DNA from: Paraspadella gotoi
Taxonomy: Eukaryota > Animalia > Chaetognatha
Length of the DNA stretch: 64,000 nucleotides
Direction of reading: 5' to 3'
Assembly (NCBI GenBank): GCA_051294375.1
Contig: CM119263.1
Location: 23,710,762 to 23,774,761, forward strand
The position numbers and the translations under genes were made by a program. Positions 5,656 to 16,550 of the stretch are shown here, in pieces; the stretch's first letter is position 1; each line of letters opens with the position of its first letter. The notes under the pieces were generated by a model. It searched no databases, was not told where the DNA came from, and saw nothing but the letters and a program-made list of their open reading frames with translations.

Positions 5656-8600
5656 ATGTCCTGGAACTCGTCGAACCAAACGAACGCCAATAACAACAAC
5701 AACAACATAGGAACTTTCATGGGTCACAAATCGGAAAGTCCTTCTCAAGTGAACAATGGAGATCATCAGAGCGGAGGCGGCCCTCAATCCTCTCCCCCAC
5801 AACTCGACAGATCTCAAGGGAAGGATATACCACTCATGCCCATGGAACAGGTTCGAACCCTTTACCCTTGTTTTTTTTTTTCCTAAAACCTTTTAAGCCT
5901 TGGTATGAAAACCTATGAAAGGCTTTGATTTTAGTGAAAGAATAGGGATAAAGGTTTTAATTTTACTTTCTGCCAGCCAGTGATCAATATACACATTTAA
6001 GTCAATTTGTTTGAAATAGTAAAACGCTCAATTAATTCCCCCCCCCCTCTTCTAACTTTTCGAAGGGCGCCGTCTCGCCCTCTTCCTCCTCCGGGGGCGG
6101 AACGAATTTAGACTCGGACCCGCTGGAAAACGACGCGGAGGGAGTGTGGTCGCCCGACATCGAGCAGGCCTTTCAAGAAGCCCTCGCCATTTATCCTCCC
6201 TGCGGACGACGCAAGATCATATTGTCCGACGAGGGGAAGATGTACGGTAAGTGTTTTTAGGGGGTAGGGGGTGGGCACAAGAAATGAGAAAAATGAGAGA
6301 ATTTCTTTCCCTGTCTGTGATCGAATTAATATCGTAACAGAGAATTGAACAGAATAACGATGGCAACTTCATTTTAACGTGTTGCTTACTAAACTTTATT
6401 GATTGACGTTTTGTTTGTTATTGTATTTAAACCCTGCTACGAGTAAAATTTCGTATAATTATCGCAGGACGGAACGAACTTATTGCCCGTTACATAAAAC
6501 TTCGAACTGGAAAAACGAGAACTCGGAAACAAGTGTCTTCTCATATTCAAGTCTTAGCAAGAAGAAGTTCCAAAGACATACGCGACAAATTGAAGGTAAT
6601 AGCAGCATAGCTATATCGAGATCGTGTAATGTATTTGTAAAATTATTAAAACCGATATAGGAGATTGGGGTTACTTTTACTTTCGCCGACCGGGGTTAGG
6701 GTTAATGGTGGTTTAGGGTTAGGGGTGGTTAGGGTTAAAAGGGTTTAGGGTTAGGGTAATTAGGCAATATTTTTTTTAAATTGTTTTTTAAAAATAAGTA
6801 TTTTTAAATGGTTTTTCAATAGACGCCAGATAGATTGAGTAATTGGAACAATGAAAATACCCATCTACATTTGATAAGATTCATAATTTTCTTCTCCCTC
6901 AACACACTTAAGTTTACCGCTATTTTAACTATTTTCGAACTGTTTATTTCTTTATTTATTTTTAACGATAACCTGTCCTTTTTTTCAAACTTATTTGGTC
7001 GAAAAAAAGGATTGGGATAGGAGATAAATCAATTGATCGAAAATGTTTAAACCTTGCTTGATTTTCTATGTAAACAATTCTTTTTTCTTTCTCTCTCATC
7101 AGACATTTTCACAAGATCAAGCAGCAAAAGACAAAGCGCTGCAATCTATGGCGGCCATGTCCTCTAGTCAAATTGTCTCAGCCACCGCCTTGCACAACAA
7201 AGGTCTTCCAGGAATGACGCCAATGAGAAGCCCCTACGTAACAGGACCACCGGTGAGTCAATTGACCTCACAAATTTTTCCTTCCTCCGGATGAACTTTT
7301 ATCCAATTTTTTTTTTTTCATCCTTTTTTTTTTTCAGTTTTGGCAACCCGGACTGCAGCCCGAGTAAGTACTCCTGTTAATTAGTTAAAGCTTGTTTTTT
7401 TGTGGGGATGTGACCTTTTTTGACCTTTTTAGACCTTTTTGAACTTTTCCTTTCAACAAGGATGAAAAGCGAGTTTTGGCTAATTTCTTTAAAAAAAAAA
7501 TTGTTTTCTGTATTCTTTCGTAAAAATCATTAAAGTTAAAAACTTGGAAGATGATTCAGATTTTGTCAAACCTTGGCTTAGGCGTCAGAGATAGCCCCCA
7601 CCCGCTAGCAAAATATTTTCTTTTCGCAGTCAAGCTCTATAACTCTAAAAAGAAGAGCAAAGACGACAGAACGGGGAGCGAGAAGCAAACATAAAATGTC
7701 AAAATTTTTGGGTGAATCTTAGCCAATCGGCGATGAGGGGGGTTCCTTCTTCCCCAATCACAAAAGTTATCATACCAAAGAAATAATTTATTTTTAGAGC
7801 GCCTGTATATTTTTTTTAATATATATTTTGAAATATTGCGATGAATGTAGGACTTATTGTAAGAAAGTTTGAGTTTTAGAGACGCTACAACTGCAAAGCA
7901 GCCTTGGTTTATTTGTCTTGAGGTACTTAGTGCTAAGACAAAATAAAACACCGGCTAGACCTCGCGCCCCGATGGAAGATTAGAAGAGGAAAAACCAAGA
8001 AGAGAGAGAATAAGGAGGAGGGGGAGATGGAGATCTCACTGGAATTGGAGCTCGGTTGCCCAGGTTGCTGGTGCTAGCTCTGTGGCCGCTCTGCAAACAT
8101 CTTCGCAGGATGAAAGACCAATAAGATTGGATCCTCTTGCTTGATAGAAAGAAGAGGAAGGCGCAAAATAAAAAAAATTAAAAAAATATTCGATTCTGCG
8201 AACCATCGCTAAGCAATTTTTAAATCATGTTCCGTTTTTTTAGAGTTTTATTATGGTAAATAGGTGTAAATGACGTTTAATTTTCATCGGTCATCTCCTT
8301 TTCTTTTCTTTCTTGTTCCATTTTTTTAAGGTTTTTTCTGTTAGCGATTTTATTTCTAATTTACACCTCTTTTTATTTTAATGTAATTCTGTATTAAGAG
8401 GAGTTAATAGTAATCGGGTAAGATAAAATGAAATTTGTGGAGGAACTGCAATGGCAAGGTATGAAGTGATGAAACAAAAATAAACGTAAACAGTGGACAT
8501 TGTACCACTGTACATTTTTATATTTAATTATTCATGTTTATTTGTTCCTTTTCTATTCAAATTCATTTTCTGCTTTCTTTACCTATTTTTCCTTTTTCTA

Positions 8601-14600: not shown

Positions 14601-16550
14601 CAGAATTTTTTTATCTTTTTTAACATCATGCTCCGATTGTATGGTTTTGTTTTTTGGCTCGTGTGTTGGCTTTGTCAATATCAATTAATAATTAGAGTAA
14701 CTATTAATTTCCTTATTTTCTTCTTAGGCTAAAGCCTTCCTACGTCTCTCAAGTCTATCCGGGACTGGATACGAAGCCAGCCTTGGGCCAGTTCAGTCAG
14801 TCCGACGCTCTCTCACCAGGTGAGTGACTCGAATTACTGCCTCCGCGCCGCGTTAAAAATAACAACGACCCCTACCAACACGAAGCTTAAAAGCTGTTTG
14901 TTTTTGATGCACCTATGGTGTGAGTAAACCGACTATCCTGTTATCATAGGAAGCATCAAGAGAAATCTCGCGGGAGGTCTTCCTCGATTCTTAATTCGTT
15001 TTCTCTGCTCAAATAAAAACTTTGCGAAGAAGTCGATTTCCCCTTTTGGTTATTTAATTTTTTTTATTTCGATTTTATATGAATCGCTTCCAAAAAAAAT
15101 TTATATCTTGTCCTTGCTAGAGTTTGACGAGGATGGATAATTTTAATATATTATTATTATGAAATTGGTACAACCAATATAAAAATTATCCATTCATTTA
15201 ATAAATATATTATATATTATATATTATCACATCAGTTACTAAATTTTTTTCCGCCATTTTCGTAGAGACATCTTGACAAATATGTTAAAAATATATTATA
15301 TATATCTCTGCTCTCTCTCTCTCTCTCTTCTCTCTCTCTCTCTCTCTCCTCTCTCTCTCTTCTCTCATACTATTCAGGATCGGCGCCCGCGTGGCACGGG
15401 AGAACGATCGGCACGGAGAAGCTTCGTCTCCTCGAGTTCTCCGCCTTTCTCGAACAACAAAGAGACGCCGAATCTTACAACAAGCATCTTTTCGTGCACA
15501 TCACGAGCCAAGCCTCCTATTCGGACCCTCAGCTTGAAGCCGTCGACATCAGACAGGTGACGAGGATAATGCCTGTGTCAGTTATCTGTACTGACAACAA
15601 CGATCACGAGGTTAATTACAAAATCTTTGCCAACAGATTTACGACAAATTTCCCGAGAAGAAAGGAGGATTGAAGGAGCTATTTGACAAAGGTAAGCCGT
15701 GAAAATGGTTGAGGTAAAAAAATGAGGAAAAAAATGAAAGAAAAGAAGAGACTCCTCTCTTAGAATGAGTAAAAAGGGAAAAAAGAGAAGAGAATAGGAG
15801 AGAAAGTAAAAAAGGAGAAAATATTCCTCTCTCTCTCTTATTCCCCGATTTGTCTTTGAAAGTCAACACCCCCTCCCTTCCAGGACCTCAAAATGCATTC
15901 TACCTGGTGAAGTTTTGGGCGGACTTGAACTTCGCTGATCCCGACGAGACCGGGACCTTTTTTGGAGTAACGTCCCAATACGAGGGACCCTCGCCCATGA
16001 CCATTCAATGCTCGACCAAAGTTTGCTCCTTCAGCAAACAAGTTGTGGAAAAAGTTGAGGTGATTATTCTCGGCAATCGAGGACGGAATTTTAAAAATTA
16101 TTATTATTATTATTATTATTCTTTCTCCAGACGGAAACCGCTCGGTTTGAAAATGGACGATACGTATACCGTATTCACAGGTGAAATTTCCTGACCCGAC
16201 TTCGAAATGTTCATATTTTTTTAAACTTAAACTATCATTGATAATTATTTTTATTTTACGCTACAGAAGTCCGATGTGCGAGTACATGATTAATTTCATC
16301 CACAAATTGAAACATCTTCCTGAAAAGTACATGATGAATTCGGTCTTGGAAAATTTTACCATCTTGCAGGTTTGTAACTATTCGTCTCCTTAGATTTTGG
16401 TAAACTGAAATACCACATTTCCCTTTTATTTTCTAGGTGGTTACCAACCGAGATACCCAAGAAACTCTCCTTTGTGTGGCCTATGTGTTTGAGGTTTCCA
16501 CCTCTGAGCACGGAGCGCAACATCACATATATAGACTTATTAAAGATTGA
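5656..16550 (+). CDS. TEAD: TEAD/Scalloped transcription factor (482 aa, 12 coding exons)
   Basis: Exons 5656-5850, 6066-6246, 6468-6595, 7103-7252, 7338-7363, 14728-14819, 15378-15556, 15637-15691, 15884-16059, 16131-16180, 16267-16369, 16437-16550 (1449 nt, in frame). TEA domain [73 protein letters not shown]-binding domain with [45 protein letters not shown] and the end HHIYRLIKD*. Confidence 0.97.
6692..6757 (+). repeat. Degenerate (TTAGGG)n telomere-like tract in a TEAD intron
   Basis: ggggttagggttaatggtggtttagggttaggggtggttagggttaaaagggtttagggttagggt contains several exact TTAGGG units. Confidence 0.65.
9199..10772 (-). CDS. VGLL: Vestigial / Vestigial-like (VGLL1-3 type, single Tondu domain), 406 aa, nested in TEAD intron 7364-14727
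   Basis: Exons 10772-10535, 10257-10101, 10024-9199 (1221 nt, in frame). Tondu domain across the last splice: [31 protein letters not shown] (family pattern CVxFTYFxGDxxxxVDEHFSRAL). Second conserved block [13 protein letters not shown], His/Ala-rich region, C-terminus KDLYSWF, N-terminus MLSCL. Confidence 0.93.
13164..13213 (+). repeat. (CT)n/(GA)n microsatellite
   Basis: Perfect CT run. Similar runs at ~15305-15365, 41816-41909, 43468-43539, 45012-45090, 47585-47687, 51918-52002, 56470-56570 and 63470-63530. Confidence 0.95.

Follow-up and report, generated by a model that had tools for sequence, protein, structure and literature searches.

Analysis of a 64,000-nucleotide stretch of the genome of the chaetognath Paraspadella gotoi (here called the window; all positions refer to it) revealed two genes of interacting families, one of which lies within the other. 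On the plus strand is a gene of the TEAD/Scalloped family, and on the minus strand, wholly inside coding intron 5 of that gene (7364-14727), is the coding region (9199-10772) of a gene of the Vestigial (Vg) type, these limits being those of the coding extent as read from the sequence. The nested partner pair, with Vg antisense in TEAD intron 5, is real. It is also apparently undescribed: full-text literature searches for a nesting or linkage of Vg and TEAD gave no description, most subscription papers being outside their reach. A sequence-only reading of the window had proposed both the arrangement and its novelty, and the literature searched, mostly open texts, left the latter claim standing.

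The TEAD gene comprises 12 coding exons that, when joined by their coordinates, encode 482 amino acids with no internal stop, and all 11 coding introns are of the GT-AG type. Pfam matches to the TEA domain fall on exons 2 and 3, and those to the YAP-binding domain (YBD) on exons 7, 9 and 11 (exon 7 at E 0.019 only); hence, intron 5 is situated in the linker between the two domains. It measures 7,364 nt, in phase 2, as against 67-558 nt for the other ten coding introns. Both its exceptional length and its position between the two groups of domain exons had been claimed from the sequence alone, and both claims are borne out. The intron in the 5′ untranslated region, as seen on X9 contig 27 (below), measures 873 nt (GT..AG); being non-coding, it does not conflict with the earlier statement that the other coding introns are under 600 bp.

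Contigs of four runs (X1, X5, X6 and X9) of the nine listed were placed on positions 4200-15100. None of the nine is recorded as RNA and X9 was treated as RNA by guess; stretches that X9 leaves uncovered were not taken as silence, and contig depth was not used to rank Vg against TEAD. X9 contig 27 (4,930 nt) joins TEAD exons 1-6 through the joints 4618>5492, 5848>6064, 6245>6467, 6593>7101, 7251>7337 and 7363>14728, all of them GT..AG. The last of these, the junction across the host intron, had been singled out beforehand as the one to look for. A related protein, P0002 (476 aa, from a 3,463-nt contig), possesses both TEA and YBD, is 89% identical to the TEAD model over 474 residues, and aligns continuously through the joint matching 7363>14728. 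The 5′ and 3′ exon groups thus belong to one gene, and Pfam, contig and P0002 together confirm the TEAD/Scalloped architecture of an N-terminal TEA domain and a C-terminal YBD in one polypeptide. The YBD is well conserved, with P0002 matching solved TEADs at E ~1e-116 and the Scalloped of PDB 6Y20 at E ~1e-97. In trees, TEAD groups with P0002 alone, on a long branch that falls outside the vertebrates and arthropods sampled. By arithmetic, the TEAD contig is ~3.3 kb longer than the 5′ part plus the coding region, and a 3′ end that is unspliced (16550-19840) would meet a convergent minus-strand coiled-coil gene at ~19.3-20.3 kb. Intron 3 contains a high-copy repeat of degenerate TTAGGG-like units (6668-6826), over which the summed contig depth is far above that of the flanks in 4/4 runs.

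The nested gene has three exons (10772-10535, 10257-10101 and 10024-9199, minus strand) that encode 406 amino acids with no internal stop and are separated by two GT-AG introns (277 and 76 nt). With this open frame, and with Pfam and profile matches, the intact three-exon Tondu gene of the sequence-only reading is recovered with its junction coordinates exact. Exon 3, which carries the helix half of the Tondu motif alone, matches Pfam Vg_Tdu at E 2.1e-5 with 24.8 bits, below the 27-bit cut-off; it also matches TEADIR3, the omega-loop family, at E 1.1e-3, likewise below the cut-off, and the Vg chain of PDB 6Y20 (6y20_C) at E 2.1e-5. Up to E 1, the frames of the three exons matched no further Pfam family, and hence no DNA-binding domain. 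Against a profile built from 11 named Vg/VGLL2 proteins, the model reaches 108 bits (E 4e-35 for a single target), the alignment covering residues 84-404. The model aligns with 11/11 of these proteins at the Tondu strand and helix, and further at the omega loop, DPY, DPW and C-terminal motif. Omega-loop residues M41 and R44 are invariant in all ten rows of the alignment, and PMC7566471 describes the omega-loop Met and Arg as required.

Homologue searches with the single sequence were nearly blind (1/3,204 candidates; 0/2). A search of 1.84 billion representative proteins returned 11 matches, and the ten that were looked up are vg/VGLL2 clusters or products of the same form, from Bemisia, Capitella, Ptychodera, Tubulanus, Lymnaea, Periplaneta, Lingula and vertebrates; the remaining match is a repetitive protein with no relation to Vg. 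Over 38% of the exon-3 frame, the related protein P0001 shows 47% identity. The tree leaves the placement of Vg unsettled, on a long branch with no close named paralogue. Membership of the VGLL4/Tgi group was rejected: the protein has one Vg_Tdu stretch, where two short TDU motifs are needed, and Pfam gives no match to the VGLL4 family. By its predicted protein, the nested gene is of the Vg/VGLL2 type, a subfamily that is called bilaterian in the part of PMC12922143 consulted, and not VGLL4.

The physical linkage of the two genes is carried by one DNA contig of run X1. This contig 6 is unbroken from 6790 to 11263 and holds TEAD exons 4-5 together with the whole Vg gene, with no exon 6, which argues against a misassembly. 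As exon 5 is spliced to exon 6, Vg must lie between them, barring trans-splicing. The contiguity that the sequence-only reading assumed is thereby supported on the left side; on the right, the remainder of the intron lies on two more X1 contigs, interrupted at two simple repeats, and the entire stretch is not covered by any single listed piece. The listed pieces of X5 and X6 cover the Vg gene without bridging to exon 5, and X1 may be the assembly's own sample. Coordinates of all features are collected in Table 1.

Table 1. Features of the TEAD gene, of the Vg gene nested within it, and of the host intron
Feature	Position	Strand	Evidence or remark
TEAD non-coding 5′ exon, 3′ end	4593-4620	+	Joint 4618>5492, GT..AG (cut +2); short side 26 letters; X9 contig 27
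TEAD first coding exon	5494-5850	+	ATG at 5656 (coding part 5656-5850); model and contig joints
TEAD coding exon 2, N-half of TEA domain	6066-6246	+	Pfam TEA E 1.9e-8; contig joints
TEAD coding exon 3, C-half of TEA domain	6468-6595	+	Pfam TEA E 3.5e-15; contig joints
TEAD coding exon 4, linker	7103-7252	+	Model; contig joints; alignment with P0002
TEAD coding exon 5 (26 nt), donor side of host intron	7338-7363	+	Joints 7251>7337 and 7363>14728
TEAD intron 5, host intron	7364-14727	+	Model and contig joint
TEAD coding exon 6, acceptor side of host intron	14728-14819	+	Model; contig joint; alignment with P0002
TEAD coding exons 7-12, YAP/Vg-binding domain	15378-16550	+	Stop at 16550; Pfam YBD; model; 89% identity to P0002
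TEAD coding exons 7-12, individually	15378-15556, 15637-15691, 15884-16059, 16131-16180, 16267-16369, 16437-16550	+	
Vg first coding exon	10535-10772	-	ATG at 10772; start MLSC, resembling the MSC start of Vg/VGLL2 proteins
Vg exon 2, Tondu beta-strand at its end	10101-10257	-	Model and profile alignment
Vg exon 3	9199-10024	-	Carries the Tondu helix (10023-9979), the omega loop (9903-9868), a stretch rich in His/Ala, the conserved C-terminal motif and the stop codon
Candidate Vg poly(A) signal AATAAA	9128-9133	-	66 nt beyond the stop; putative
Candidate upstream open reading frame, 15 codons	10772-10819	-	Its stop and the Vg start codon overlap; a single perfect TEAD-type motif (10787) shortly precedes the ATG
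GC-rich island around a (GA)n tract	~12800-13500		Candidate Vg 5′ exon or internal promoter; strong donors 13156 (-) and 13499 (+); without RNA support

Vg/VGLL2 proteins bind TEAD through the Tondu strand, the helix and the omega loop. Binding of the nested Vg to TEAD is therefore predicted from homology to the 6Y20 complex, from this family knowledge and from the conserved residues, and structure prediction adds weakly to it. The complex prediction, which the sequence-only reading had proposed as a check, gave a weak score of 0.51 against 0.00 for the best of three controls (runs of 0.01, 0.68 and 0.51), the runs sharing at least 9% of contacts and the partner having a predicted local distance difference test value of at least 35. 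While this mark is reached by 51/78 solved complexes and 2/108 mismatches, scores of 0.60 or lower comprise only 5 of the 78 solved complexes, yet all 4 passing mismatches. Furthermore, the prediction used the TEAD of a relative (P0002) and a Vg piece without the beta-strand, and since a like complex is already solved, the pass may reflect memory; it indicates likeness to the known complex rather than binding of this copy.

With regard to transcription, 306 of the 336 letters of X9 contig 28 cover 9719-10024 and end exactly at the acceptor of Vg exon 3, where the DNA contigs run on. Five variants were seen in the Vg frame in other samples: two are silent and three change a residue. They include no stop and leave the strand, the helix and the omega loop untouched, and the variants listed for these samples comprise no indel in the Vg exons. 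Approximately 5.8 kb of the host intron is non-coding and partly GC-rich. The minus-strand donor at 13156 in the GC-rich island would, in a candidate sequence model, join an acceptor at 10996 and produce a 76-codon upstream open reading frame (ORF) ending on the Vg start; X9 contigs lack coverage of 12936-13299 in the island. Two further X9 contigs, with no joint, cover intronic positions 13593-14089 and could derive from the 5′ part of Vg, from another transcript, from host RNA that is unspliced, or from DNA. No Rfam family was found in 4000-20000, and none of six other ORFs in the intron scored above the Pfam cut-off. A MEF2-like A/T pattern, seen 10 times against 2.2 in shuffles, was rejected: it represents five sites, each scored once per strand, and a similar abundance is seen in the window beyond the intron.

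To our knowledge, the Vg and TEAD genes are separate in fly and human, and in Xenopus tropicalis TEAD1 and VGLL2 are on different sequences. In Bemisia tabaci, vg and scalloped (P0122/P0133, P0155-P0159) are annotated on one 64,051,928-nt sequence, the newer accessions being 48-49 apart and the older ones 7,824 apart; the two genes are thus linked there but, if accession order follows position, probably not nested. Metagenome contigs were also scanned for the omega-loop motif. This yielded 69 loci, 16 of them Vg exons and 53 not Vg (the latter dropped before the TEAD count), and none of the 69, including the 16 Vg loci, had a TEAD match at E 0.01, a weak test as the flanks are mostly short. 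The intron positions of Vg differ between the window and other animals: a pyrimidine-rich acceptor stands just before the omega loop in 9/10 Vg loci of other animals, an intron that is absent in the window, while the intron splitting the window's Tondu motif is absent in 3/3 genomic loci with a Tondu exon. These differences fit a relocation of Vg in this lineage by an RNA-mediated move followed by intron gain, a common route to nesting according to passages of PMC5174743.

The explanation we favour, with a probability of roughly 0.55, is a real, lineage-specific nesting in which Vg has its own promoter and the coupling between the two genes is permissive. An intact Vg/VGLL2-type gene would likely have moved in this lineage, by an RNA-mediated or a local event, into intron 5 of a TEAD gene that is spliced across it, in antisense orientation. 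Its transcription would likely start from a promoter of its own, located in the stretch from the Vg start codon to TEAD exon 6, and would be switched on in some of the cells that also transcribe the host. The Vg protein is predicted to bind the YAP-binding domain of the host's product, in competition with YAP. The locus would thus supply both halves of the complex and tolerate head-on transcription, without a stoichiometric or switch mechanism, and the nesting itself may be a tolerated accident. According to PMC3814207 and PMC5174743, nested structures involve nearly 10% of fly genes, 71% of the nested genes are antisense, and insertion is the usual origin of nesting. By rough reasoning, the occasional nesting of a gene in that of its partner should occur by chance across many animal genomes, and it is this base rate that leads us to prefer a permissive, lineage-specific nesting over dedicated co-regulation, a switch, or a silent copy or artefact. 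Moreover, according to PMC3814207, the members of a nested pair in Drosophila resemble each other in expression or function, on average, no more than do random pairs from the same chromosome.

Several observations weigh against this explanation. Transcription of Vg is only hinted at: no Vg splice joint is among the 15 joints listed of 38 in the X9-run table, X9 offers short unstranded contigs over Vg, and the similar short contigs at 13593-14089 suggest that the Vg fragments might be unspliced host RNA or DNA. As to the origin of the nesting, one contiguous Vg locus from elsewhere (L055) also lacks the helix-omega intron, and the LRRC34-like and MORN-repeat neighbours in the window are single long ORFs, which also fits lineage-wide intron turnover; the loss of the Vg intron may therefore be a feature of the lineage rather than a mark of relocation. 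The conservation test is weak, since only 2/16 Vg loci, apparently of one animal, have ~9-10 kb on both sides, and the comparison was made without DNA of a close relative. The common sequence of vg and scalloped in Bemisia may hint at an old linkage, and for any single gene a landing in its own partner is improbable, which favours selection.

It is possible, on a more tentative footing, that the coupling in cis is dedicated: vg and TEAD would be old neighbours, or would share enhancers in the intron, and selection would keep the nesting so as to match Vg to TEAD expression, which would make this a single-locus selector complex comparable to the cholinergic locus. The sequence-only reading had put forward such a complex, with shared enhancers, stoichiometric co-regulation or an interference switch between Vg and YAP; these parts of it are conjectural, unlike the gene identities, the nesting and the splice sites, which are supported. 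The products are direct partners in other animals, and passages of PMC12247715 describe Vg as autoregulated by Vg::Sd in Drosophila. Of newly nested fly pairs, 75% were previously on one chromosome, at a median of 10.8 kb apart (PMC5174743). The joint sequence and the newer, closely numbered accessions in Bemisia count in favour of this reading, as does the non-coding, partly GC-rich portion of the intron. The motif counts speak against it: the TEAD core motif CATTCC occurs 4 times in the intron against 4.3 expected, without enrichment, and Su(H) motifs occur twice against 1.65, at chance level. The older Bemisia accessions, with probable non-nesting there, and the 16 other Vg loci with no TEAD match, weak as that test is, point the same way, as does the statement in the consulted part of PMC3814207 that fly nested pairs share Gene Ontology terms less often than neighbours.

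Unlikely, in our estimation, is a switch, in which a Vg promoter region that is bidirectional or interferes with TEAD elongation would give, in Vg-positive cells, less full-length TEAD, or a short TEAD from exon 6 on that keeps the cofactor-binding domain, has no DNA-binding domain and soaks up YAP or Vg. The geometry would suit it: Vg has its 5′ side towards TEAD exon 6, and the exons for TEA and YBD are on opposite sides of the intron. In addition, the strong plus-strand donor at 13499 closes a frame of 209 codons that is free of stops and matches exon 6 in phase; its possible starts would yield products of 272 or 388 aa. Of 1000 shuffles, 8 had no stop in that frame. However, this frame was chosen after the fact, from one of 11 strong plus-strand donors, and the shuffle breaks a stop-free CT tract and so overstates its rarity; its GC content by codon position is flat (0.57/0.59/0.57), and other frames of the island are open for 113-187 codons. 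Among the 15 listed joints of 38, the sole joint into 14728 comes from exon 5. Precedents consist of ceh-10, which induces a short polq-1 (PMC12274878), and TEAD4-S, a dominant-negative form without the DNA-binding domain (PMC4909989), both as described in the available parts of these papers; for the former, the authors favour a functionless by-product. An extended version we consider quite unlikely, namely a self-contained TEAD cofactor switch in which the locus of the DNA-binding factor also encodes, within its linker intron, the dedicated cofactor. The intronic island would drive Vg one way and a TEAD without DNA-binding domain the other, activation of Vg would alter the cofactor that TEAD carries, and the arrangement would be old and kept in an early-branching bilaterian lineage. 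Very unlikely is a silent or decaying Vg duplicate, or an order of exons due to assembly error: the absence of a Vg splice joint among the joints listed, the three residue-changing variants of five, and the lack of a single piece across the intron are outweighed by 406 open codons, canonical introns, family motifs kept to the C-terminus, a long branch with no close named paralogue, variants that spare frame and motifs, the related P0001, and the X1 and RNA-like contigs that tie exon 5 to Vg and to exon 6, respectively.

Among known systems, the closest in content is the Drosophila Vestigial-Scalloped and vertebrate VGLL2-TEAD pair, which shares the families, the single Tondu motif with an omega loop, and the TEA and YBD domains (PDB 6Y20; PMC7566471, in part). 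There, the genes are separate, whereas in the window one contains the other and the introns of Vg stand at different positions. The closest in arrangement of function is the cholinergic locus, with VAChT inside ChAT intron 1, which is likewise a nested pair with products in one process; VAChT is single-exon and conserved from nematodes to mammals, (PMC3053374), whereas the window's Vg is antisense and intron-bearing, with no conservation of the nesting seen in the loci compared. Those of the cholinergic locus do not form a pair of transcription factor and bound cofactor, as the products of the window pair are predicted to do. In Caenorhabditis elegans, ceh-10 within polq-1 also represents a transcription regulator antisense in a host intron, with its regulatory region facing the downstream exons; those partners are functionally unrelated and a short host transcript was demonstrated, in the sections of PMC12274878 consulted, while the window pair are predicted partners. 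Ordinary opposite-strand nested genes, as portrayed in parts of PMC3814207, PMC5174743 and PMC11694760, resemble the window in being antisense, in the host's longest intron, and likely inserted. Such pairs typically have no shared function, in contrast to the DNA-binding factor and predicted dedicated cofactor found here. VAChT is on the same strand as its host ChAT.

Nested pairs are usually unrelated in function, and transcriptional interference is considered to drive their expression apart. As Vg is inactive without TEAD in the same nucleus, the pair in the window is predicted to need co-expression despite head-on transcription. It thus lends itself to a natural experiment on two questions: whether nested genes are really constrained by interference, and how the Vg-YAP balance on TEAD can be set in cis. 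Should the nesting prove conserved, an ancestral linkage within the Vg-TEAD selector pair would be indicated; a nesting confined to the lineage and uncoupled would be a striking but ordinary insertion.

Elsewhere in the window, the LRRC34-like gene (21186-22526, minus strand) and the MORN-repeat gene (32298-33014, minus strand) are the single long ORFs referred to above. They are adjoined by a multi-exon MORN gene (27759-30875, minus strand), forming a small group of likely cilia genes; we take the MORN-repeat gene to be RSPH1-like and the multi-exon MORN gene to be RSPH10B-like. Finally, a 472-codon Ser/Pro-rich ORF at 49021-50439 (plus strand), with no Pfam family, is probably the last exon of a regulator, with earlier exons at ~46100-48200.

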